A DNA stretch of 64,000 nucleotides from Octopus vulgaris (lineage: Eukaryota), in contig OX597814.1 of NCBI GenBank assembly GCA_951406725.2, forward strand, positions 79,422,001 to 79,486,000. Reading direction: 5' to 3'. Shown one piece after another: positions 6,491-60,826 of this stretch. Both the position numbers and the translations under genes were made by a program. Each line of letters starts with the position of its first letter. Position 1 is the stretch's first letter. The notes beneath the pieces were generated by a model that saw only the letters and a program-made list of their open reading frames with translations, made no database searches and was not told where the DNA came from.

Positions 6491-6801
6491 CTGAAAATTT
6501 TCAGAAGATGAAAACTCATCTATAAGCATATAGAGATTCTGATATTTACAGAAGAAATTTACATTGAGTACAAGAAATACAGAAAACTAAGGAGAGAGGG
6601 CATTCTGTTTCAGGTCCGCCAGCTGTTTGTGGCGGTTCGGAGTTACGTAATAGTTGTAATGTTGGCAGATGGAATGTGCAGAAAATTAAAGGTATGCGGC
6701 CAGTAGTGGATGCATATAAACATTACCGTAAAGCCGACTACCGTCTTCAGGGTGGTGGCATTGGCAACAAGCCTGTTGACTCTACTTCGAATATGCATAT
6801 A

Positions 6802-6847
<46 letters not shown>

Positions 6848-6855
<8 letters not shown>

Positions 6856-7012
6856 CACGTGTGGCTCTGTATTAAGAGGCTTGCTTACCAACCACATAGT
6901 TCTGGGTTCAGTCGTACAACCTGACACCTTGGAGCAATTGTCTTCTGCTATGGCCTCGGGCTGACCAAAGTTTTTGGAGTGGATTTGATAGACGGAAATT
7001 GAAAGAAGCTCG

Positions 7013-7054
<42 letters not shown>

Positions 7055-8109
7055 TACTCAAAGAATTTGTAACTTTAACTGATTTTCACGTTTTATTTAC
7101 AATCATAATATAATATAATATAATATAATATAATATAATGAAATGATAGAATATCAAATATCCATTCGGATTGAACTAGTACTTTCATGCATTAACCTAC
7201 TATATTTGAAGATAGATATATGTCCAGTCATAGAATGACCAATTGTCCCGCATCCATAAAACTTTCAAGAAGTTTATGAAAAGAATGCCGCACAGGAGCA
7301 GTGCACCTTCGTTGTCTAATAATGAACACGCTTATAAACCTGCTGACATTAGTGGCTAAACTAGAATGGATAGAGCAATTTGCATATTTAACACTTTTTT
7401 GGTAGCTGGTTTGAATATTAAATTGCTAACGTGTTAACTGTATTTCGCCACATTGCTACGATTTACTATAAAAGGTAAACGTACATTTTTTAACCAACAC
7501 TGTCTTACAGCAGATAAAACATTATGTGTGTATATATATATATATACATATATATATACAATATGATTTCACACTGAAAATAAATAGCAGCTATATGAGC
7601 ACGCACATTTCAACTCTGCTTGGAGTCTCGTCAGCAGCTGCCAAGAAAGTGATAAATATGCAAATTATTCTATCCAGTATTTCTTTTGCCAGCTCACCTC
7701 GCCCTTGGACCCGACGAGACCTCCCGCCCGTTCCTGGGATGTCGCTTGTCGTTGGGTTTTCCCCGCCCGTCTCCGCGGGACCACTCTTCCATCTTCCCCT
7801 CCGCTGGAGTCCTTTTCCTACCCCCCCTTTTTTTCGTTACACACACGCGCACACATATACACACATTGCTTAAACATATACATCACTCTTACACACATTC
7901 AATCTACTCGCCACTAATACTACCACGACACTGGACACACACACAATATCAGCGTGTTTACAAGCACACACTCACACATACACACACATCTGTTGCGTTA
8001 CCAACCTTGTCTATATATATGTATATATATATATCTCCGTTGCCCGCTATCTTTCTTTCCTCTCTCTTCCTTCTTTATATATATATATATATGTTTCCCG
8101 TTTGGATTA

Positions 8110-8174
<65 letters not shown>

Positions 8175-8270
8175 CACGTGTGGCTCTGTATTAAGAGGCT
8201 TGCTTACCAACCACATAGTTCTGGGTTCAGTCGTACAACCTGACACCTTGGAGCAATTGAAAGAAGCTCG

Positions 8271-8340
<70 letters not shown>

Positions 8341-9015
8341 TACTCAAAGAATTTGTAACTTTAACTGATTTTCACGTTTTATTTACAATCATAATATAAT
8401 ATAATATAATATAATATAATGAAATGATAGAATATCAAATATCCATTCGGATTGAACTAGTACTTTCATGCATTAACCTACTATATTTGAAGATAGATAT
8501 ATGTCCAGTCATAGAATGACCAATTGTCCCGCATCCATAAAACTTTCAAGAAGTTTATGAAAAGAATGCCGCACAGGAGCAGTGCACCTTCGTTGTCTAA
8601 TAATGAACACGCTTATAAACCTGCTGACATTAGTGGCTAAACTAGAATGGATAGAGCAATTTGCATATTTAACACTTTTTTGGTAGCTGGTTTGAATATT
8701 AAATTGCTAACGTGTTAACTGTATTTCGCCACATTGCTACGATTTACTATAAAAGGTAAACGTACATTTTTTAACCAACACTGTCTTACAGCAGATAAAA
8801 CATTATGTATATATATATATATATATATGTTTATATATATATATATACATATATATATACAATATGATTTCACACTGAAAATAAATAGCAGCTATATGAG
8901 CCGTACATTTCAACTCTGCTTGGAGTCTCGTCAGCAGCTGCCAAGAAAGTGATAAATATGCAAATTATTCTATCCAGTATTTCTTTTGCCACTAATATCA
9001 GCGTGTTTACAAGCT
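6848..9015 (+). repeat. Local tandem duplication of ~0.85 kb (6848-7690 vs 8167-8991)
   Basis: The two copies are near-identical and each starts with a SINE head. Copy 2 lacks a ~61-nt segment bounded by AATTG. Confidence 0.9.
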
Positions 9016-11214: not shown

Positions 11215-11450
11215 ACTGAGAATGTGTATCTGTCTGTATGTATGTATGTCTGCATCACTAAAACTCGAAAAGTACTCAACCGATTTCATTAAACTTTTAT
11301 ACATGCCTTACTTAGAGTCCATGCAGTATCATGGGTCTAAAATTTTCAACTTCTTGCCTACTGCGAGTCCGAACCAATCTCTTATCTCTCACACTATTTC
11401 AGTATTACGCGTCAATTGTGAACCATAATAGTTCATACGTTAAATTTAAT
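11215..11450 (+). mobile_element. DINE-1/Helentron-associated-like repeat fragment
   Basis: (TGTC/TGTA)n followed by CTCGAAAAGTACTCAACCGATTTCATTAAACTTT, a motif typical of such elements. Confidence 0.35.
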
Positions 11451-12680
11451 GTATGAACTACCATGGTAGATAATTGCTAGTGCTCCCCCATTTGGAAATG
11501 GATCGGACAGACGTAAATTGTGTATTAGGGAATCGTATCTAATTCTGAAATTATTTAATGCTAATATGCTGAACAAATTTTCAGACGCGATTCCTTCGTG
11601 TTCTATTCTACATAAGTTCTATTCGACATTTTAAAGGACACATAGACTTAGACCTGTATTTGCCGTGAATCTTAGATCATTCTATTCAAGCCGGTATATT
11701 ATCACTTACATATGAACTCTGTAATCTTACTAATAATAAAAAATATACCTATAAGTTCTACTCAACATTTCTAAGGACATATATAATTAGATCCGTTAAC
11801 TAAATCAATGAAAACTTATCTCATCAATATTTGAATTTTGACTATGAACTTTAGATCCTCCCATTCTTGCCAGTATGCTATCATTTGCATATAAGCTTTG
11901 AAAATTGATTAAGAAATATAAAAAAAGTTCTCCTCCTTCTTTAATCTATCAAGTTATTACCATGTAGGATTTCATCACGAAGGAAACAATCCTGATATGG
12001 GGAGGGGGGCATCATGTTTCTGTATTTGGAATATCTAAAACGCCATTTATAAATTTATTGTACCCCTGAAACGGCCGTAGATGATATCCTTTACCCGAAT
12101 TCACCCGAATCTGTATATATTTATTTTATCTATCTATTTATCTACCTATGAATTTTTAAATTTTGAACTCCCATCCAACATTTCGTATAAAAATCAGATT
12201 CTTCAACGATTCGAACAGTTCCTTTTGGAAGCCTATACCTCGAATTCTTATCTCTTTATTTGTTACTCCTCCATTCGGTACTTGAACTCAACGTACATGA
12301 TGCATAGTTTTCAAATAAAACGTTTACATGTAATTTTATTTCTCTGATTTATAAATTTATATGTATATTTATTTCGTTGTGTGTTTTAAATTATGCTTTG
12401 GAATTTGTATTGATTGCCGAGATTTAGCTCGCAATGAGCACTTCTTAGTACAGTTCATATATTGTGAAGTATACTTAAAGAAATACTTTATGAGAAAATT
12501 TAACTTTATGCATATATATGTACACATACACACATACACACACACACATATATTTACGTATATATATATGACCACGTGACCGACCAGGCTATCTGATGTT
12601 GCTACACATCGCTGGTCACAATACGCTTCGTATTGTTTTAGCCTTCAAATAAGCGAGCAGGCCAATATATATATATTTAC

Positions 12681-19439: not shown

Positions 19440-19655
19440 TATTCTTTTACTCTTTTACTTGTTTCAGTCATTTGACTGTGGCGATGCTTGAGGATCGCCT
19501 TTAGTCGAGCAAATCGACCCCAGGACTTATTCTTTGTAAGCCTAGTACTTATTCTATCGGGCTCCTTTGTTGAACCGCTAAGTTACGGGGACGTAAAAAC
19601 ACCAGCATCAGTTGTCAAGCGATGTTGGGGGACAAACACAGACGCAGAAACACAT

Positions 19656-19707
<52 letters not shown>

Positions 19708-19875
19708 GCATATGCATATACATATATACGACGGGCTTCTTTCAGTTTCTGTCTAACAAATCCACTCACAGGACTTTGGTCGGCTGAGGCTATTGTAGAA
19801 GACACTTGCCTAAGGTACCACGCAACCATGTGGTTGGTAAGCAAGCTACTTACCACACAGGCACTCCTACGCCTA
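19440..19875 (-). mobile_element. SINE family A, near full length
   Basis: Complete head, internal (TA)/(CA) tract and AGTAAAAGAGTAAAAGAA tail on the minus strand. Confidence 0.85.
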
Positions 19876-20694: not shown

Positions 20695-20913
20695 CAGGGT
20701 GATTGAAAATTAATTCCCTATATTTAAAATACTTATAATTTATTGACTATAGGCGCAGGCATGGCAGTGTGGTAAGAAGCTTTGTACTCAACCACACGGT
20801 TCCGGGTTCTGACCCACTGTGTGGCACCTTGGGCAGGTGTCTTGTACTATAGCCTCGGGCCGGCCAAAACATTGTGAGTGGATTTGGTAGACGGAAACTG
20901 AAAGAAACCTGTA

Positions 20914-20948
<35 letters not shown>

Positions 20949-21893
20949 TGTGTGTTTGTGTTTGTACCCCCACTTGACAACCGGTGTTGGTGTGTTTACG
21001 TTCCCGTAAGTTAGTGGTTCGGCAAAAGAGAATGATAGTATAAGTACTAGGCTTACAAAGAATAAGTTCTGTGATAGATTCGTTCGACTAAAAGTGGTGC
21101 TCTAGCATGGCTGCAGTCAAATGACTGAAACCAGTAAAATCTTAAAAGAATAAAAGAATATGATTTTTTCCTCAAATTTGTTGTGTATGTTCTTTAATGT
21201 ATGGGAATGGATTCTATGTTATTTTTCAGATCGATTATTTTGTTTGATATTCAGAAACCCTACAAACATGGTCTGATCTCTTAAAAAATATCTTCTAGAG
21301 TGATGAAGTGGTATTCCACATCGGTGGATTTGTGAACTGTCACAACTACCACTACTAGGCAGATGATCCTCGTATTACCTCTGAAAATACCATGAATGCT
21401 GAAAAGTAGCTCACCATGCTGCATGATGGAATCTGGCCAGTTACTTGGAAGAATATTGAAGATTTGATTTTTATGCAAGATGCCGCTCCTCGACATTTTG
21501 CCAATGTTGTTCGTAAATGGCTGAATGCCTACTTACTTGGGAAATGGATGGATCGTCGAGGTCCGCATGATTGGCCGACCAGAAGCCCTGATTTAACACC
21601 TTTCGGGTTGGTTAAAGGAGCAAGTCTACTTTACCAAGCCAACGATTTTGGAAGAACTTGAAAGGCGAATACGAGAAGTTATATCTTCCATCCTACAAGA
21701 GTTTCTGATGAAATCAGTTCATGCGGTTCCCGACCGGCTTGAGAAGCTGGTGGCAAATGCTGGTGCTTATATCGAATTTTGAATAAAATTTCATGTTATA
21801 CGCTTTCTTTCCATATTAATTTTTTCTAAAAGTTATTGTTAATAAATAAATTATAAGTACTTTAAAATAGGAAGTTACTTTTCAATCACACTG
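20695..21893 (+). mobile_element. Internally deleted Tc1/mariner element with ~50-bp TIRs
   Basis: Left TA|CAGGGTGATTGAAAATTAATTCCCTATATTTAAAATACTTATAATTTATT matches the reverse complement of the right end. Contains a transposase piece QDAAPRHFANVVRKWLNAYLLGKWMDRRGPHDWPTRSPDLTPF. Confidence 0.85.
20749..21160 (+). mobile_element. SINE family A nested in the Tc1-like element
   Basis: Full head-to-tail family A copy located just inside the left TIR. Confidence 0.85.
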
Positions 21894-22544: not shown

Positions 22545-22722
22545 TTTCGTGGTTGTATGGTAAGAAGCTTGCTTCGCAACAACATGTTTCAAGGTTCAGT
22601 CCCACAGCGTGGCACCTTGGACAAGTGTCTTCCACTATAGCCTTGGGCAAACCACAGCCTTGTGAGTGGATTTGGTAGACGGAAAATGAAAGAAGCCCGT
22701 CGTGTGTATATATATATATATA
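22545..22722 (+). mobile_element. SINE family A, 5' half (split by the Naiad insertion)
   Basis: Head through GAAAGAAGCCCGTCG, then (TA)n. The 3' half resumes after 32165. Confidence 0.85.
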
Positions 22723-22918
22723 TACAAAATTAGAGAATGGAAGAGAAACATATTTAAATCAATAAAACATCAACTATCCGATGATACTCAATCCATACTT
22801 TAATACACCATTACATAGGAGTAAAGGCAATATATAAAATGAAATGAGATATACAGTAATAGTAAAAGTAAAAAGATAAAGAGATATAAGTAAAAAATTA
22901 CAAATACAATATGCAAAT

Positions 22919-23044
22919 AAATCAAAACTGACAGCTGTTTCGGCAGTGAGGACAGTCATACCTCATTTAACCTATAAGCCATAAAGGCAGGTATAAATGA
23001 GGCATTAACAAAGATGCCCCACGGCCTCTTCAGAGAATTAAATT
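22919..23044 (-). ncRNA. Type I hammerhead ribozyme, downstream repeat
   Basis: CUGAAGA (23033-23027), long stem II (23026-22942), GAAA (22941-22938), then CAGCUGUC giving a palindromic stem III and a GUC triplet (22932-22930). Confidence 0.8.
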
Positions 23045-23376
23045 AAATTTGTTATAATAGTGAAAAATATTATATAATCATATACATATAAATATAAAAA
23101 TATAAAAAAGTAAAATATAAAAACTTATACATCATAATGCTACACTTGTATAATATAATACATATTTGTACAAAAAGGAAGGTAACCAGAACAAAATAAA
23201 ACAAAATATATAACAGTGTATATATAATATTAATAAGTACCGATATCATACATATTTAGCTAATAGTTTTTTTTATAAAAAAAGGGCTAACACATATGGA
23301 GATGAAAAATAATAATAATTAAATCCGTGGTACAGTTCATAAAATTCTAAAGCTATAAAAGTTAATAAAAATTACT

Positions 23377-23410
<34 letters not shown>

Positions 23411-23534
23411 GTAATAATAATAAAAATAATAAAAATAATAGATACAGTTAAGTTATCACCAAGTCCATCCTTCCAAGATCGAAATAACTATGAGTTAAGA
23501 AATGCTGACCACTAGGTAAAGAAAATTTAGATTA

Positions 23535-23615
23535 ATTCGATTGGCTATTGGTTTGAAATTTAAATCACAAAAGAAAATTATACGGTTGGTTAGTCAGGGA
23601 ACGCCAATATTCACA
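23535..23615 (-). promoter_or_regulatory. Candidate pLTR promoter (CCAAT cluster)
   Basis: Minus strand CCAATAGCCAATCG (plus 23538-23551) with a nearby plus-strand GCCAAT, ~500 nt upstream of the hammerhead. The same motifs are present in the other repeat at ~29110. Function is inferred. Confidence 0.25.
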
Positions 23616-25141
23616 CACGCATCTACAGATCAATCGCACATACACACATAGTTATATGTATATACATACACTTGTACATATACATAATCATAAGCAACAA
23701 CTAACACTTAGATAAACAAATAGGGAAGCAACCATGCTAACACTAAGTCCTTCAAAATTATAACTGAGCCTCAATAACAAAAAAAGAACCATCCATGCAT
23801 TCTATAAAATATTTAATTAAGATATAAATGTATTTTTAAATATCAGTATGTTACTAATTCAGATAATTATTTCATGGGTAACTTAAAATTTATAACACCG
23901 GTTTGTTGCAGAGTAAACATACGGTTGTTAGGTTTATCGTAAGTTTGTTATGATTTAAAGTACGCTAAATTATAAAATATAAAATATAAAATATATTAAT
24001 TTAGATATTATAAATAAGTCACTTATTAACTTAATAAATATAGTGCCAAAATATACCAGTTTAGGCAATAAAAAATAGAGGGGGAAGTATTAATGTAAAC
24101 GCTTATGAGAACATCACAGAAATTTTAAATAAATTTTATATTATAAAGACTTAATATGAAAAGAGATAAAATAAATAAAAAGGAATAAATACGAAGGAAT
24201 AAATACGGTTATACACATAATTATAAGTACAAACTAGTATATATGTATTCATATATTATTAAAATAAATAAAAATAAATGATAGATATGTATGTATAAAA
24301 CTACACCAGTATAAGTAAATAAGTAAAGAATAAATAGGTAACAAATTAAATGACTAGATATGTATGTAAACATCTACACTTAAATAGGCAAATAAATAAA
24401 TAAATAGAAGACTAGATGCAAATATTGATAATATTACAATAAAATGGGAAATAAATAAAAATAAATAAAGTGAATATATATATTTTATATTGTTGAAAGT
24501 AAATATGTATGGAAGGATAGTTTAAAGTACAGATCCAGAGGACTATAGATATAAACTAAATATATGAGGCTGGTAACAATTATAAAGCAAAATGTATGTA
24601 AATGAGAAAATGAAAAAAATGAAAAAGGTTTATCAGTGAATAAGCATAAGATACAAATTAAGGTGAGTACAAAAGACCAAATATATAATAAAAACCTTCC
24701 AAATCAGCACATACAAAAAAGCCCATAATCTCAACCTAAACCCACCAAACTCACAAAAGGCTCTCATATATTACATATTATACAATATCATTACATTATC
24801 CAGAGCTAGGTATCTAACCAAGATATACATATATACTTTGCAATATACTATGCAATATTGGAAAACTTCAAAAATCACACATTACAAGGCAAATACCAAA
24901 ATGAATATGTTATTTTATGTCATATTGCATTTCTCTTAAAAAAAACAAACAAAAACCCACATACAAAAACCAAGAAACCAATAATACTAGACACATCCAA
25001 TTAGTTATTATACAAATGTAGCTATAAAAATTATAAAATTATGAAATTTATAAATTGTATACTTTAGAATTATAGAAGACCACAGGTATATTTAGTTAAA
25101 GAAGGGAATTAAAAAATTGATAATAGTGGAAGTGCTAAGTT

Positions 25142-27983
25142 CTATTTGAATCTAGAAAAGGTGAACGGTAGCCTATGAATACAAAAGAAGCTTTTCTCAT
25201 TAATGTTGTTAATAATTTGCCGACCCGCTTTAATAATGAAGAAAATTTCATTAATACATAGAGAGCATTTTTTATTTTTTCCATTATACACAGGTGCTGA
25301 AGTTAGTATTTTCCAGTTTAATCTAAAATCTAAGTTCTTACTTTTAAGTTCCCAAATATATGCACTTAGCCCTGTAGAGTACATTCTATTTTTATTCCTA
25401 AAAGTATATCTATGATAATTCCATCTTTGTTTTATGCTATTCATAGTTGCCCCGATATACACTCTACTACTCAATTGTGTATCTACAGTGCATTGGTAAA
25501 CTACCTCCTTCCTGAGGCATTGATTACCAAATACACATTTATTTTTATTTCTGCAATTACAAAGATTAACAGAATGAGGAAATCTAAGATTGGACACCAC
25601 CCCTATACTACTATTCACATTATAAGTGTTACAATTGTTATCATCATCCAAACCCAAAATCAACGAATGAGTTAATTCCACATTATCGGCTATATTCCTA
25701 TCACTAGTACTAGTATTGGTAGTAGTGGTATGATCTATTACATTTATATTATCTCTGACAGGTATGGTGCACTCATTATTAGTAAGGAGGTTGCTCCCAT
25801 TTGTTCCAAGAAAATTTCTATTCCTATTATTAATGAAGAGGGGCAAGTTTTCCTGGTCTAAATTCAATTTTCTATCCTTATAGAAGTGATCCAGTTTCTT
25901 GTTATTAAAAGAGGAGATGATGGTGGCTAGATTATGAGTAATGCTATATCCCACTCTAACAGTACCGTTGTTAATTAAAGGACTAAATTTATTCCTATCC
26001 TTACCAAAATGCCTAAAAATAATATTATGCAAAGCTCTCACTATGTTTGTTTTAATCTGCATTGCATACGGGATAATCAACCAAAGAGTATCCTTATCAG
26101 AATTAGGATTGCCTATAGAATTAATGTTATTTGTAAAAATCCTATTCGTAGACCAACTCATAGGATTACTATTCTTACCACTGTCATTGTTATGTCTATC
26201 TATATCAATATTACCATGGTTATTGCGCAAGTAAACTTTACCATTATCATGTCTACCATAAGTTTTAATTCGTATATTATTATTAATATTACTACTACTA
26301 CTCGTATGTTTAGATCTATTTGAGCTACCGTTCACCTTTCCAAGGTTAACGTCACTTCTACATTTATTATAGGTGTTATCATATATTCTGTTTTTACTAT
26401 TCTTATGTATATTGTTGATTATCCTAAATCTATTTGTGTTGTTCTTGATAGTTCTACCTCCATTAGGGGGTTCCCCTTAGGTATAAACCAAATCTTACTT
26501 TTATATCCTGCCTTAAGTAATGCTGCATTGTATCTATCACAGTGTTTGTTAAAAATTTCCTCGTTTGAGGATAAACTAGAAATTCTTTGACTAATGCTAC
26601 GCACTAGTGCATTTTTAATTTGAGGGGGTGATTACTAGAACGGTTAATGTATATTAGGTTAGAATTAGGTTTAATATAGGGTTCATGTAAACCATTAGTA
26701 ATGTTACAATTAACATCTAAATAATTAGCAGAATAATTTTCACTTTCAATGATAATGGATAGGCCGAAGCTTTTAAAAAATTTGTTTATTCTTTTTTTCA
26801 GAAGATCTAATCTCCTATTTGATGTATTCCTAACACAAAATAAGGCGTCATCCCTGTATAATCCGCCTTTTAATTCAGGGAATTCCCTACTAAAGTTATC
26901 TAATAGATACATCCCAACTAGATCAGTCACCTCCGCTGAGTCCGGCGATCCCATTGTGATATCGAACAAGTTGGGTGTGTCCTTTCTAGCCCAAAGTTTA
27001 TTATCAAACTCTATTAAAGTTTTCCTGGCTGTTAGTATAACCTTAATCTCCCCCATACTTAATTTAGTGTGTTTTCTAGCAAAAATTAAGGACTTATTTA
27101 ATATAATAGGGTTAATTGAAGTGTAATAATTCTGTATATCGAATTGTATAAATTTATTTCTATTATAGCTAAAGTTGTTACTGTCACAGACCTTAATGGC
27201 AGAAAACCAATCCAAAGCACCCTGAGTATTCTTCCAAAGGTTTAGTTTGATTTTATTGCGGATGGTGGGTAGATATTTATCTAGAATGAGTTTACTTAGT
27301 CTGCCTAAGTCAGATTTAGTGGGGCAAATTAATCTGACCTGTGTGTTTCCAAGAAAATTCTCTTTATGATCCTTTAGTGTAATTCTCGGTCTGGATGGGG
27401 TGTAGGGTTCCGTTTTTTCTTCTAGGTAGTAGTCAAATATGATTTCTCTGATCTCCAGGTTCAGCTTTCTAAGTGTACTAGAAGGTACTACTTTGTATTT
27501 CTTGGTTATTTCCTTGTGTAGAAGATCATGATATGCAGTAATGTCAATGTTGTAGATGTTGTTAGTTTTGTCAGAATGTGTTAGAATGCCGCTCTTACCT
27601 TTGAGAGTTCTAATTAAGTCTTTCAATTCTCTTTGGTGCGGGTTATATCTTAAAGGATGATTTCTAAATTTTATGTTTTTTACAGTCTCCCATAGTTCTT
27701 GTTCAAAATTGTCTAGATGTATATTTGGTGGAGGAGACTTTCTAGATTTAAATGTAGTGCTTGTTAGTTTTAATATTTCTTCATAGGTGCTTCCAATTCC
27801 ATTACGGATCGTTTCTCCAGTGTGTTGTTGGTTTATTTTATTATTATAGTTCTCATGGTGGAAAATCCTCCATCTGATCCTATGGATGAATTCATTCATT
27901 CTATAAATTAGTTCTTTAGTGTAATGGTCTTTGGTAGGGATAGGTACATCCTTCATTGATGAATTGATCAGTATTTTCTCCAT
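25142..27983 (-). CDS. Naiad-type PLE polyprotein (RT + thumb + GIY-YIG endonuclease), ~947 aa if two 1-nt frameshifts are corrected
   Basis: ATG at 27983 reads MEKILINSSMKDVPIP. RT motifs: FDIQNYYTSI, TMGSPDSAEVTDLVG, LYRDD. Thumb: SNHP(P)[26 protein letters not shown]: [31 protein letters not shown]. The frame changes at G5 runs 26624-26628 and 26466-26470. Confidence 0.9.
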
Positions 27984-28491
27984 TCTTCTAGCAGTAATGA
28001 TCAAAGGAACAAATATACTACACTAGGGTGTATTCACATGCACTATTAATATTTAAATCAATAAATGGATGCTTATATTACACCAGTATGAGCAATTCAG
28101 GTTCCTCAAAAGATAAATTTAGGTTATAAAATGAGATAGGGGTTGAAAATTCAACCCACCATGGGATAATATATATCCAATATACTGCTAGATAGGTACC
28201 CAACAAAAATTAATACATAGATGTTAGAAATTGTCAAGCAATCAGTTCATCTATTGTATTAAATGGGTAAGGGTAATAATATTACCGTAAATTAATACTA
28301 CAAAATTAGAGAATGGAGAAACATATTTAAATCAATAAAACATCAACTATCCGATGATACTCAATCCATACTTTAATACACCATTACATAGGAGTAAAGG
28401 CAATATATAAAATGAAATGAGATATACAGTAATAGTAAAAGTAAAAAGATAAAGAGATATAAGTAAAAAATTACAAATACAATATGCAAAT

Positions 28492-28617
28492 AAATCAAAA
28501 CTGACAGCTGTTTCGGCAGTGAGGACAGTCATACCTCATTTAACCTATAAGCCATAAAGGCAGGTATAAATGAGGCATTAACAAAGATGCCCCACGGCCT
28601 CTTCAGAGAATTAAATT
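28492..28617 (-). ncRNA. Type I hammerhead ribozyme, upstream repeat
   Basis: Identical to the 22919-23044 motif. CUGAAGA at 28606-28600 and GUC at 28505-28503, an offset of 5573 nt. Confidence 0.8.
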
Positions 28618-28950
28618 AAATTTGTTATAATAGTGAAAAATATTATATAATCATATACATATAAATATAAAAATATAAAAAAGTAAAATATAAAAACTTA
28701 TACATCATAATGCTACACTTGTATAATATAATACATATTTGTACAAAAAGGAAGGTAACCAGAACAAAATAAAACAAAATATATAACAGTGTATATATAA
28801 TATTAATAAGTACCGATATCATACATATTTAGCTAATAGTTTTTTTTATAAAAAAAAGGGCTAACACATATGGAGATGAAAAATAATAATAATTAAATCC
28901 GTGGTACAGTTCATAAAATTCTAAAGCTATAAAAGTTAATAAAAATTACT

Positions 28951-28984
<34 letters not shown>

Positions 28985-30712
28985 GTAATAATAATAAAAA
29001 ATAATAAAAATAGATACAGTTAAGTTATCACCAAGTCCATCCTTCCAAGATCGAAATAACTATGAGTTAAGAAATGCTGACCACTAGGTAAAGAAAATTT
29101 AGATTAATTCGATTGGCTATTGGTTTGAAATTTAAATCACAAAAGAAAATTATACGGTTGGTTAGTCAGGGAACGCCAATATTCACACACGCATCTACAG
29201 ATCAATCGCACATACACACATAGTTATATGTATATACATACACTTGTACATATACATAATCATAAGCAACAACTAACACTTAGATAAACAAATAGGGAAG
29301 CAACCATGCTAACACTAAGTCCTTCAAAATTATAACTGAGCCTCAATAACAAAAAAAGAACCATCCATGCATTCTATAAAATATTTAATTAAGATATAAA
29401 TGTATTTTTAAATATCAGTATGTTACTAATTCAGATAATTATTTCATGGGTAACTTAAAATTTATAACACCGGTTTGTTGCAGAGTAAACATACGGTTGT
29501 TAGGTTTATCGTAAGTTTGTTATGATTTAAAGTACGCTAAATTATAAAATATAAAATATAAAATATATTAATTTAGATATTATAAATAAGTCACTTATTA
29601 ACTTAATAAATATAGTGCCAAAATATACCAGTTTAGGCAATAAAAAATAGAGGGGGAAGTATTAATGTAAACGCTTATGAGAACATCACAGAAATTTTAA
29701 ATAAATTTTATATTATAAAGACTTAATATGAAAAGAGATAAAATAAATAAAAAGGAATAAATACGAAGGAATAAATACGGTTATACACATAATTATAAGT
29801 ACAAACTAGTATATATGTATTCATATATTATTAAAATAAATAAAAATAAATGATAGATATGTATGTATAAAACTACACCAGTATAAGTAAATAAGTAAAG
29901 AATAAATAGGTAACAAATTAAATGACTAGATATGTATGTAAACATCCACACTTAAATAGGCAAATAAATAAATAAATAGAAGACTAGATGCAAATATTGA
30001 TAATATTACAATAAAATGGGAAATAAATAAAAATAAATAAAGTGAATATATATATTTTATATTGTTGAAAGTAAATATGTATGGAAGGATAGTTTAAAGT
30101 ACAGATCCAGAGGACTATAGATATAAACTAAATATATGAGGCTGGTAACAATTATAAAGCAAAATGTATGTAAATGAGAAAATGAAAAAAATGAAAAAGG
30201 TTTATCAGTGAATAACATAAGATACAAATTAAGGTGAGTACATAAAGACCAAATATATAATAAAAACCTTCCAAATCAGCACATACAAAAAGCCCATAAT
30301 CTCAACCTAAACCCACCAAACTCACAAAAGGCTCTCATATATTACATATTATACAATATCATTACATTATCCAGAGCTAGGTATCTAACCAAGATATACA
30401 TATATACTTTGCAATATACTATGCAATATTGGAAAACTTCAAAAATCACACATTACAAGGCAAATACCAAAATGAATATGTTATTTTATGTCATATTGCA
30501 TTTCTCTTAAAAAAAACAAACAAAAACCCACATACAAAAACCAAGAAACCAATAATACTAGACACATCCAATTAGTTATTATACAAATGTAGCTATAAAA
30601 ATTATAAAATTATGAAATTTATAAATTGTATACTTTAGAATTATAGAAGACCACAGGTATATTTAGTTAAAGAAGGGAATTAAAAAATTGATAATAGTGG
30701 AAGTGCTAAGTT

Positions 30713-32161
30713 CTATTTGAATCTAGAAAAGGTGAACGGTAGCCTATGAATACAAAAGAAGCTTTTCTCATTAATGTTATTAATAATTTGCCGACCCGCT
30801 TTAATAATGAAGAAAATTTCATTAATACATAGAGAGCATTTTTTATTTTTTCCATTATACACAGGTGCTGAAGTTAGTATTTTCCAGTTTAATCTAAAAT
30901 CTAAGTTCTTACTTTTAAGTTCCCAAATATATGCACTTAGCCCTGTAGAGTACATTCTATTTTTATTCCTAAAAGTATATCTATGATAATTCCATCTTTG
31001 TTTTATGCTATTCATAGTTGCCCCGATATACACTCTACTACTCAATTGTGTATCTACAGTGCATTGGTAAACTACCTCCTTCCTGAGGCATTGATTACCA
31101 AATACACATTTATTTTTATTTCTGCAATTACAAAGATTAACAGAATGAGGAAATCTAAGATTGGACACCACCCCTATACTACTATTCACATTATAAGTGT
31201 TACAATTGTTATCATCATCCAAACCCAAAATCAACGAATGAGTTAATTCCACATTATCGGCTATATTCCTATCACTAGTACTAGTATTGGTAGTAGTGGT
31301 ATGATCTATTACATTTATATTATCTCTGACAGGTATGGTGCACTCATTATTAGTAAGGAGGTTGCTCCCATTTGTTCCAAGAAAATTTCTATTCCTATTA
31401 TTAATGAAGAGGGGCAAGTTTTCCTGGTCTAAATTCAATTTTCTATCCTTATAGAAGTGATCCAGTTTCTTGTTATTAAAAGAGGAGATGATGGTGGCTA
31501 GATTATGAGTAATGCTATATCCCACTCTAACAGTACCGTTGTTAATTAAAGGACTAAATTTATTCCTATCCTTACCAAAATGCCTAAAAATAATATTATG
31601 CAAAGCTCTCACTATGTTTGTTTTAATCTGCATTGCATACGGGATAATCAACCAAAGAGTATCCTTATCAGAATTAGGATTGCCTATAGAATTAATGTTA
31701 TTTGTAAAAATCCTATTCGTAGACCAACTCATAGGATTACTATTCTTACCACTGTCATTGTTATGTCTATCTATATCAATATTACCATGGTTATTGCGCA
31801 AGTAAACTTTACCATTATCATGTCTACCATAAGTTTTAATTCGTATATTATTATTAATATTACTACTACTACTCGTATGTTTAGATCTATTTGAGCTACC
31901 GTTCACCTTTCCAAGGTTAACGTCACTTCTACATTTATTATAGGTGTTATCATATATTCTGTTTTTACTATTCTTATGTATATTGTTGATTATCCTAAAT
32001 CTATTTGTGTTGTTCTTGATAGTTCTACCTCCATTAGGGGGTTCCCCTTAGGTATAAACCAAATCTTACTTTTATATCCTGCCTTAAGTAATGCTGCATT
32101 GTATCTATCACAGTGTTTGTTAAAAATTTCCTCGTTTGAGGATAAACTAGAAATTCTCTGA

Positions 32162-32165
<4 letters not shown>
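30713..32165 (-). CDS. 5'-truncated second copy of the Naiad ORF (thumb + GIY-YIG)
   Basis: 397-aa ORF identical in translation to 25142-26335. Truncated at [10 protein letters not shown] against (TA)n. Confidence 0.85.
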
Positions 32166-32239
<74 letters not shown>

Positions 32240-32485
32240 CATATATATGTATGTATGTATGTATGTGTGTGTGTGCGTGCGCACGTGTAAGTTTTTTAGT
32301 GTCTGTGTTCGTTTCCTACCACCGTTTGACAACCAGTGTTGGCGTGTGTACGTCCCCGTAATCGAGCGGGTCGACAAAATATACTGATAGAATTAATAAT
32401 AGGCTTAAAAAATAAATCCTTCAAAGTGGTACTTCAGCATGGCCTCAGTCAAATGGTTGAAAGAAGTAAAAGAATAAAAGAAAAG
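32166..32485 (+). mobile_element. SINE family A, 3' half
   Basis: (TA)n then TTGACAACCAGTGTTGGCGTGTGTACGTCCCCGTAA...CAGCATGGCC.CAGTCAAATG...AGTAAAAGAATAAAAG, continuing 22545-22722. Confidence 0.85.
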
Positions 32486-57895: not shown

Positions 57896-58640
<745 letters not shown>

Positions 58641-58852: not shown

Positions 58853-58871
<19 letters not shown>

Positions 58872-60826
58872 CCTACGGCTGTAAAGACCAACTACTCATC
58901 AATAAGATGATCTTAGAAGATTGTCACAAACGACACAAAAACTTATCAATAGCCTGGATAGACTATAAAAAGGCTTTTGATAGCCTACCACATAGCTGGA
59001 TTAGGAAATGCCTTGAAATGTATAAGATAGCACCAACTCTGCGAAACTTCTTGACTGTAAGTATGAGATCATGGAGAACCACACTAACTCTGAACAGTGA
59101 CAGTGAATCCCTAAATGCTGGTGATGTAAAAATTTCGTGTGGCATTTTCCAGGGTGACTCACTGTCACCACTCCTCTTTTGTTTATCCTTAATACCTCTC
59201 TCAAAGCTGCTCAATGACGCGCAGTACGGGTATAAAATGTTTGATAAAAATATAAATCATCTCGTTTACATGGATGATTTAAAGCTTTTTGCAAAAAATG
59301 ATCAACAACTCAAGGGCTTACTAGCGATAGTCAAACAATTCAGTGACGACATCAGAATGCAATTCGGCCTCGATAAATGTGCAAAGGCTACCTTTATCAA
59401 AGGAAAAATGACAGAAACATCTAACGTTAACCTTGACCAACAGAATGTCATAAAAGAACTAGACCCAGCGGAGAGCTACAAGTACCTAGGGATAATTGAA
59501 GGGAACGGAATAAGGCATTCAGAGATGAAGGAAAGGATCAGGAGAGAATGCTATCGAAGAGTGAGAGCAATACTCAAGACAGAGCTGAATGCAAGAAACA
59601 GGATCGAAGCAATCAATGCATTAGCTATACCAGTCGTGACTTACAGTTTCAATATTGTTAACTGGTCAATTACTGAAATATGTCAGCTCGACAGAAAAAT
59701 AAGGAAACTGTTGACAATGCATAGAATGCACCACCCTAAGGCAGATACAGAACGACTCTATCTGCCAAGAAAGAGGAGAGGCCGTGGTCTTTTGCAACTG
59801 GCAATAACAATGAAGATTGCTACAATTGGCCTAGACACCTACCTGAAAAACTCTGAGGACTGGATGCTAAAACTTGTCTCAAAACATGAAAACAAGAAAG
59901 CATCATACTCAGTCACAAAACAGGCAAAGGAATATCTAAGTGAATTCCGAATACAACCAATTTCGGAATTAGAGATAGATATACAAGAAACAAGCACAGA
60001 AAAAGCTAGGCGCATGAAAACCCGTGCCAAAACTGCGGCCTTAGATATTCTGAATAATAAATGGCAAGAAAAACCTCTCTATGGCAAATACCCAAAGAGA
60101 GCGAATAATGCAGATATCGACAAAGCCCTGACCCATCAATGGCTAATGGCCTCTGGCTTAAAATCTGAAACAGAGGGGTTTATCATAGCAGCTCAAGATC
60201 AATGCCTACCAACAAGAAACTACCAGGCCAACATATTAAAGATCAGAAGCAGTCCAACGTGTCGTGTATGCAAGCAACAAAATGAAACCATTGACCATGT
60301 GGTCTCCAAGTGCAGTCTTCTAGCGCCTACAGAGTATCTCAACAGGCACGATAGAGCTGCACAATATATTCACTGGGTAATCTGTAAAAACCTGGATTTG
60401 CCCCATGAAAAAAACTGGTGGGAACACAAACCACCCCCAGTGCTTGAAAATGACCACATCTCACTCCTCTGGAACTTCACCATTCAAACTGACAGGAAGA
60501 TAGATGCAAATAGGCCAGACATCATATTGAAAAACTTCAAACAAAGAACATGCCTCCTCATTGATATGACTGTCCCAATCGATATAAACGTATCTGTCAA
60601 GACCTACCAAAAACTGAGCAAATATAAAGATCTTGAAATAGAAATCAGCAAAATGTGGAAGCTGAAGACTAAAACAATACCTGTTGTCATAGGTGCCCTG
60701 GGAATGATAGCAAAAGGGGCTGATAGCTACCTAACTCAGATACCAGGAAACCCAAAAATGGCAGAAGTTCAAAAGATAGTGCTCATGGGAACTGCTCATA
60801 TCCTACGCAAAATACTCTCTATGTAA
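58853..60826 (+). CDS. RT - zinc knuckle - restriction-like endonuclease (5'-truncated, uninterrupted)
   Basis: [15 protein letters not shown]; [10 protein letters not shown]; [13 protein letters not shown]; YMDDLKL; [14 protein letters not shown]; RHD; NRPDII..LIDMTVP..KLSKY. Confidence 0.93.

Follow-up and report, generated by a model that had tools for sequence, protein, structure and literature searches.

The window analysed here comprises 64,000 nucleotides of the Octopus vulgaris genome (assembly GCA_951406725.2, contig OX597814.1, positions 79,422,001 to 79,486,000 of the forward strand) and harbours, on its minus strand between positions 22723 and 32166, a Penelope-like element (PLE) that combines a telomerase-related reverse transcriptase (RT), a GIY-YIG endonuclease and a partial tandem arrangement. 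Read in the sense direction, a 5′-truncated copy (28299–32166), the pseudo-long terminal repeat (pLTR), is followed by a full-length unit of about 5.57 kb (22723–28298), which amounts to 1.7 tandem units. The truncated copy begins in the RT thumb and includes the linker, the endonuclease, the 3′ non-coding region and a hammerhead-like motif. The full unit consists of a 315-nt leader (27984–28298), running from the tandem junction to an ATG at 27983, which corresponds in alignment to residue 1 of full-length relatives, the coding region (27983–25142) and a 2419-nt 3′ non-coding region (22723–25141) with 76% A+T, the sense strand of which contains no open reading frame (ORF) of 80 or more amino acids. 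At the tandem junction the 3′ end passes directly into the 5′ leader, with no TA tract between them. No tRNA gene was found in the window.

Self-BLAST of the window aligned the direct repeat 22723–26595 with 28299–32166 at 99.64% identity over 3875 columns, and in a global alignment the two copies differ by three substitutions and seven indel events over 3.87 kb, at least four of these indels lying in A runs or an AAT repeat. The coordinates and counts given in a preliminary description of this locus, which had placed a near-identical truncated copy of 3.87 kb before the 5.57-kb unit, thus hold. That description had also considered the repeat very long for a pLTR and pointed to the whole endonuclease region within it; the region is indeed included, but this is what a partial tandem of ORFs is expected to give, as the legend of Fig. 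2 in Craig et al. 2021 (PMC8557442, of which selected sections are drawn on throughout) also describes, and much of the length is contributed by the 2.4-kb 3′ non-coding region. At two of the three substituted sites (24375/29947 and 26587/32158) the downstream copy carries A and the upstream copy G on the sense strand; these differences would fit adenosine-to-inosine (A-to-I) editing of the template RNA, although two sites prove nothing.

As the layout is read from the assembly alone and the copies are 99.64% identical, the upstream copy could in principle be an assembly duplication. A false duplication would be expected to carry flanking DNA, and the layout is therefore unlike one: the duplicated stretch comes without flanks and starts inside the ORF directly on a (TA)n tract. 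Its 3′ end meets the 5′ leader with no TA tract in between, as is usual for PLE partial tandems (PMC8557442, sections used), and the copies are separated by three substitutions. We regard an assembly artefact as very improbable.

The element splits a single SINE-like repeat at its internal (TA)n tract. We take this repeat to be a short interspersed nuclear element (SINE), and each flank corresponds to one half of the same copies of it elsewhere in the window: the (TA)n tract with the 5′ half (32167–32375, minus strand) matches 19522–19728 and 20951–21059, and the (TA)n tract with the 3′ half (22555–22722, minus strand) matches 19710–19859 and 20767–20934. At either junction, 2 nt (TA/AT) agree with the target, and no target duplication is readable within the TA tract. 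The insertion into the (TA)n of a SINE and the young age that had been proposed for the element, the latter resting on the three substitutions in 3.87 kb, were both borne out. Applying the distance of 0.09 per 25 million years from the consulted part of PMC13282606, the sequence divergence would place the tandem at roughly 0.1 million years, an upper bound if the copies started out identical, and the insertion is likely recent. A decayed fragment on the plus strand of the same window (11446–11631), located near TA-rich DNA and matching the endonuclease end of the related protein P0001 with 35% identity over 62 amino acids (E 2e-5), appears by this similarity to be an older Hydra-like insertion.

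As assembled, the coding region is split over three frames, all on the minus strand, with breaks at two runs of five C. ORF piece 1 (26628–27983) encodes the N-terminal region and the RT core with the motifs RWR, DKT, FDI, FDITMGS and GLYRDD, and its predicted fold is closest to telomerase RT. It is separated by break 1 (26624–26628) from piece 2 (26470–26625), a thumb region of 52 amino acids. Break 2 (26466–26470), which recurs in the upstream copy at 32037–32041, leads into a third piece, the first part of which (25562–26467) is a long linker with two Asn-rich expansions around a conserved W..P.. / N..TV..SYS block, and the second part of which (25142–25561) carries the CxCx5C motif, the GIY-YIG endonuclease, CxxC, CxH and the stop codon. 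None of the three pieces contains an in-frame stop, and a selenoprotein reading was rejected on this ground. For the analyses below, the protein was assembled with X at both breaks, giving 947 positions.

The protein P0004, listed by its source under Octopus sinensis, reads through both break sites in one frame, being identical to the octopus element over the RT part and 54 aligned thumb residues and 92% identical over the next 145 residues; open-frame members of the family therefore exist at both sites. The close relatives P0001, P0002, P0005 and P0101 are likewise single ORFs of 759–806 amino acids. Since P0004 is open at both breaks, they may be consensus errors, and we consider this more likely than a genuine loss of frame: both sites are five-C runs where P0004 needs one more codon position, the pieces are free of in-frame stops, and seven indels against three substitutions separate the copies, with at least four of the indels in A runs or the AAT repeat. 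Indels outnumbering substitutions are typical of residual long-read error. Were the breaks real, this copy would have been made from defective RNA by the protein of another copy and would have been dead on arrival. Break 2 is found in both copies and would by itself stop the protein about 20 residues on, without linker or endonuclease. This explanation, which is compatible with either of the template models discussed below, is somewhat less probable, yet far from negligible. The earlier view of the element as near-intact is accordingly to be divided, as the RT, CxCx5C and endonuclease motifs are present while the coding region lies in three frames with two breaks.

In the assembled protein, RWR is found at position 37, DKT at 138, YRDD at 376, CxCx5C at 809, YIG at 843, CxxC at 907 and CxH at 935, placing the endonuclease (809–947) C-terminal to the RT. 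The RT motifs FDI..YYTSI and YRDD, the CxCx5C motif and the endonuclease residues pointed out in the preliminary description are all there. RWR is the K-to-R form of RWK, as in the closest relatives, and GxKF, DKA and DKG were not found in the protein. The linker motif reads CNCRNKNKC and is followed by V, where relatives have a nearly invariant P. The C-terminal CxxC reads CSLCINE, and CxxC and CxH flank the conserved E and N. No cysteine precedes residue 219 of the RT piece, so that a CxC motif before the RT is lacking, and no CCHH pair was found, the endonuclease core holding one cysteine. All columns invariant among 57 relatives are kept in the endonuclease, including the Y, Y-x-G, R, H, E and N positions.

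Structure prediction agrees with these assignments. For the RT model (pLDDT 84) the top eight Foldseek matches are telomerases, and the endonuclease model (pLDDT 90) aligns with I-TevI (Z 9.9, rmsd 2.3, 89 aligned residues) and T4 EndoII (Z 8.4), followed by further GIY-YIG proteins. Foldseek itself returned no match at E ≤ 0.001 for the endonuclease model, its best rows being T4 EndoII and I-TevI. Pfam gave no significant family for the three ORF pieces or for P0001, P0004 and P0006, none of the Pfam models in the searches run detected a Hydra RT, and a sequence-profile search of the PDB gave zero matches.

The nearest named relatives are P0004 of Octopus sinensis, P0071 of O. bimaculoides (68%) and P0003, P0099, P0117 and P0181 of Argonauta hians. 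Motifs were counted in 79 sequences of at least 650 amino acids with an RT motif (78 relatives and the octopus element, some of them near-copies): DKT occurs in 55, CxCx5C after the RT in 53 and the C-terminal CxH in 67. The linker from SNHP to CxCx5C spans 359 residues compared to a median of 146 in 51 relatives, of which one is longer (373), the Asn-rich linker adding about 210 residues. P0003, P0004, P0071 and P0233 carry host-gene names at NCBI ("GATA zinc finger domain-containing protein 14-like", "uncharacterized protein DDB_G..."), which probably stem from their Asn-rich stretches. Contig scans for relatives gave little, with one scan and the viral contigs blank, another scan yielding two short loci and a further one a single doubtful bacterial locus, which was set aside. 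Among 24 listed sequencing runs, 20 (from seven studies under one species label) hold 61–85% of the sampled words of the unit, and four with shares of 0.02–0.05 were left out; one run may be the source of the window itself. These matches show the family in several samples and speak neither to this insertion nor to its expression, and no RNA run holding the unit was among the runs listed.

The preliminary description had assigned the element to the Naiad clade, taking CxCx5C as a Naiad mark. In the sections of Craig et al. 2021 (PMC8557442) used here, CxCX5C is given to Hydra instead, and Naiads are characterized by an N-terminal endonuclease, DKA, an IFD (about 20 extra residues between RT3 and RT4, absent from some Naiads), CCHH, CX2-5CxxC and the lack of a canonical hammerhead; none of these features is seen in the octopus element. 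Naiads do share the (TA)n target, partial tandems and the GIY-YIG family with it, and they occur in Octopus. The two octopus Naiads in the supplement of that paper, however, begin with the endonuclease, whereas it is C-terminal here, DKT stands in place of DKA, and the two FD motifs marking RT3 and RT4 are 59 residues apart, compared by eye to about 60 in Hydra-1_Obim from Octopus bimaculoides, which leaves no room for an IFD. A Naiad element was rejected by domain order and is, in our estimation, hardly conceivable.

Hydra elements, as described in the same sections, have a C-terminal endonuclease, RWK, DKT, CxCX5C, no CCHH, terminal CxxC and CxH, hammerheads and (TA)n targets; GxKF/Y is not conserved, and neither an IFD nor a CxC before the RT is present. 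The octopus element shares with Hydra-1_Obim the order of RT and GIY-YIG, RW[KR], DKT, GLYRDD, CxCX5C, the missing CCHH and the terminal CxxC and CxH, and an octopus host is thereby already on record; with the clade as a whole it shares a hammerhead core near the 3′ end and the (TA)n target, here observed directly at the insertion site. In the rows of Fig. S7 (PMC8557442) that were compared by eye, FDITMGSPD and GLYRDDA match all nine Hydra rows, each of which shows GLYRDD and FDVxxGx[YF]D, and none of the nine canonical rows, which lack these forms. In an RT tree of 125 rows, the octopus element falls into a group of 13 (support 100) that includes two Argonauta proteins, with a best identity of 48% and seven of the 13 rows coming from two clusters. 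Judged by its sequence features, the element is a young, enlarged variant of the Hydra-clade Penelope-like retrotransposons. Public assemblies contributed about 110 other unnamed Hydra-like RT rows to this tree, far above the 27 published families, and the Hydra clade looks much larger than described.

What is new about the element is its enlarged size, the long 3′ non-coding region, the Asn-rich linker and stem II of the hammerhead-like motif, while the class of element is unchanged. Its unit of 5.57 kb compares to 1080–3045 nt in the 27 Hydra families listed in PMC8557442, the "generally short" of that source being a typical and not a defining trait, and its protein of about 947 amino acids to 709 in Hydra-1_Obim. 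From stop codon to ribozyme the distance is 2109 nt, unlike the whole Hydra elements published there, which end soon after the ORF, and unlike the related locus L001, where a CUGAUGA core lies 248 nt past the stop codon and the locus ends at the contig end. The octopus element has a clear pLTR, which Hydra-1_Obim lacks in the same source, and by eye it represents a different family.

Both strands of the window were scanned for hammerhead cores, and CUGAAGA...GAAA...GUC was found on the minus strand at 28606 and 23033, confirming two identical hammerhead cores 5573 nt apart; the identity extends over 176 nt. The downstream type I hammerhead-like motif (22928–23035) comprises CUGAAGA at 23033, an 85-nt stem II hairpin, GAAA at 22941, the stem III palindrome ACAGCUGU, a predicted cut after 22930 and a stem I of only two adjacent base pairs, and its counterpart in the upstream copy lies at 28501–28608. 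When 2178 nt of the 3′ non-coding region were shuffled 1000 times with dinucleotide composition preserved, no such motif arose. Stem II forms an unbranched imperfect hairpin of −38 kcal/mol (z −3.4 for the 161-nt region), and stem III, which is Hydra-like, is a perfect palindrome that would allow an 8-bp dimer pairing (−11.1 kcal/mol). A second strong hairpin or a sense-strand AATAAA was not found in the scanned non-coding parts. Rfam gave no match at gathering score in the window, and even at E ≤ 10 over 22723–24800 it returned only microsatellite-driven microRNA and small nucleolar RNA matches and missed the hammerhead.

Compared to published motifs, the arms are unusual. In the 26 Hydra rows of File S2 (PMC8557442, the portion used), stem II with its loop does not exceed about 24 nt and stem I has 3 bp or more, as opposed to 85 nt and 2 bp here; the longest stem II in that file, of a spike-moss element, reaches about 53 nt, and the core descriptor applied there to elements without a canonical motif has a 7–17-nt spacer. 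Closer in this respect is the Penelope hammerhead of D. virilis, which in the part of Cervera and de la Pena 2014 (PMC4209133) consulted also has a 2-bp helix I and a palindromic helix III, but a helix II of 6 bp; metazoan PLE hammerheads are described in that study as cleaving weakly in vitro and as dimers. From its sequence, self-cleavage of the octopus motif is plausible, although doubtful as a monomer given the 2-bp stem I and palindromic stem III, and any cleavage is likely to be inefficient or to require dimer formation or the help of a protein.

A second pair of hammerhead-like cores was noted elsewhere in the window. A duplication of 900 bp (6797–7691 and 8116–8991, 90% identity) carries minus-strand CUGACGA cores at 7634 and 8934, which are compact, have a stem I of 9 bp and lie beside a TA tract. 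No ORF was found in this duplication, which by its sequence is probably the 3′ end of another PLE family.

The positions of the ribozyme and of the element's end bear on the RNA that served as template. The predicted cut is 520 nt upstream of the ATG. Between the two comes the genomic 3′ end, 207 nt beyond the cut and 316 nt short of the start codon of the next unit. The preliminary description had read the spacing of the hammerheads as a ribozyme-to-ribozyme RNA of exactly one monomer. Any pair of equivalent points in a tandem duplication has this spacing, whether or not the RNA is cleaved, and the one-monomer RNA was rejected as evidence of cleavage. A linear RNA cleaved by both ribozymes would stop at the cut site and cannot template this end, nor 1.7 units in one pass. 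The template would thus have been either uncut through the ribozyme or circular, two states that the sequence alone does not separate.

By analogy with other PLEs, a single RT-endonuclease protein would bind its own RNA, nick AT-rich DNA and start complementary DNA (cDNA) synthesis inside the RNA. In the present case, the endonuclease would have nicked the TA repeat of the SINE-like repeat and the telomerase-like RT would have copied an RNA that extended beyond the ribozyme, the best candidate being an uncleaved multi-unit transcript. The presumed cDNA start maps between the predicted cut, 207 nt away, and the next ATG, at a distance of 316 nt. From there, synthesis would have proceeded through a complete unit and 0.7 of a further one before ending on a 2-nt AT match to the target; as in tandems of other PLEs, promoter and leader may come from the upstream partial copy. 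A precedent is Poseidon_Ac of the green anole (Frangieh et al. 2024, PMC11167929, selected sections), which likewise combines a tandem, a C-terminal GIY-YIG endonuclease and an AT-rich target; its genomic end, too, lies beyond the hammerhead, which fits an RT that initiates internally. In that element, reverse transcription begins at an AT-rich nick from an internal position of the RNA, insertion is normal when the ribozyme is mutated, and RNA sequencing revealed no ends at the ribozyme cut site. It differs in that its ribozyme overlaps the start codon and the RT starts 111–118 nt inside the ORF, whereas in the octopus element the cut and the genomic end lie 520 nt and 316 nt upstream of the ATG.

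The same Hydra element could instead have used a circle, with the hammerheads cutting as a dimer, the 5.57-kb monomer being circularised and the RT running 1.7 times round. Such a model was proposed for PLE tandems by Cervera and de la Pena (PMC4209133, in part); it would yield both sequence past the cut site and near-identical copies, and the perfect palindrome of stem III, with its 8-bp dimer at −11.1 kcal/mol, would suit it. The stem I of two adjacent pairs, the weak cleavage of metazoan PLE hammerheads in vitro, the missing read ends at the cut in the anole and the insertion of its ribozyme mutants argue the other way. One circle would moreover give no substitutions at insertion, and three are seen, which later mutation or error could explain. 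We consider this route possible but unlikely, and on the anole analogy an uncleaved multi-unit transcript would be favoured over rolling-circle copying. More speculative still, and improbable in our view, is an octopod-rich Hydra sub-lineage that has doubled in size and replicates via a 5.57-kb circular RNA cut by two hammerheads pairing through their palindromic stems across the whole unit, with the 85-nt stem II acting as a new control switch that turns cleavage on and off, either a protein-binding site or a target of cephalopod A-to-I editing. If true, long-armed PLE hammerheads would form an uncounted class that escapes Rfam and short-spacer searches.

Taken together, we think it probable that a Hydra-clade PLE of 1.7 units inserted recently into the (TA)n of a SINE-like repeat via an RNA that ran past the ribozyme. 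Several points weigh against this reading. A circular template accounts for the same DNA equally well, and the mechanism is borrowed from Poseidon, an element of another clade. The RT tree holds only relatives of the octopus element and no named Hydra, Naiad or Neptune references, so that Hydra membership rests on domain order and motifs. Frame breaks and junctions are known from the assembled sequence alone; break 2, common to both copies, could equally reflect a defective template or a systematic error, and the lengths of C or G runs in the window (28 runs of five and three longer ones) do not settle where the breaks come from. No RT-related protein longer than 804 amino acids was found, which is weak evidence, and among the sequences searched no intact member of 950 amino acids is on record.

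For Octopus vulgaris, 336 recently active PLE insertions in 31 families have been reported (1.83 Mb, mean about 5.4 kb, clades not given; consulted part of PMC13282606), so that a young, long PLE in this animal comes as no surprise. The octopus Hydra family may already be contained in that library, the consulted part of its supplement making no mention of Hydra. In the open-licence papers and bioRxiv preprints searched, neither a long Hydra element, nor a stem II of the 85-nt type, nor a functional study of the clade was found, and a 2026 retrozyme preprint, in the part used, reports Hydra only in a coral. With its 27 listed families, Hydra is more divergent and less studied than any other PLE clade, and a very young copy that has a pLTR and retains all catalytic residues suggests that its family could provide an active Hydra element for biochemistry. 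The mapped ends would allow a direct test of whether PLE tandems arise from circles or from read-through RNA, and the long-armed hammerhead is a form that standard searches miss.

A further retroelement lies on the plus strand of the window at 58853–60826. Behind a long (AAT)n tract, an open frame of 657 amino acids gives matches to RVT_1 (E 9e-22) and zf-RVT, and a related 3′ fragment is found just upstream (57899–58402). We presume it to be a non-LTR element of the R4/Dong type.

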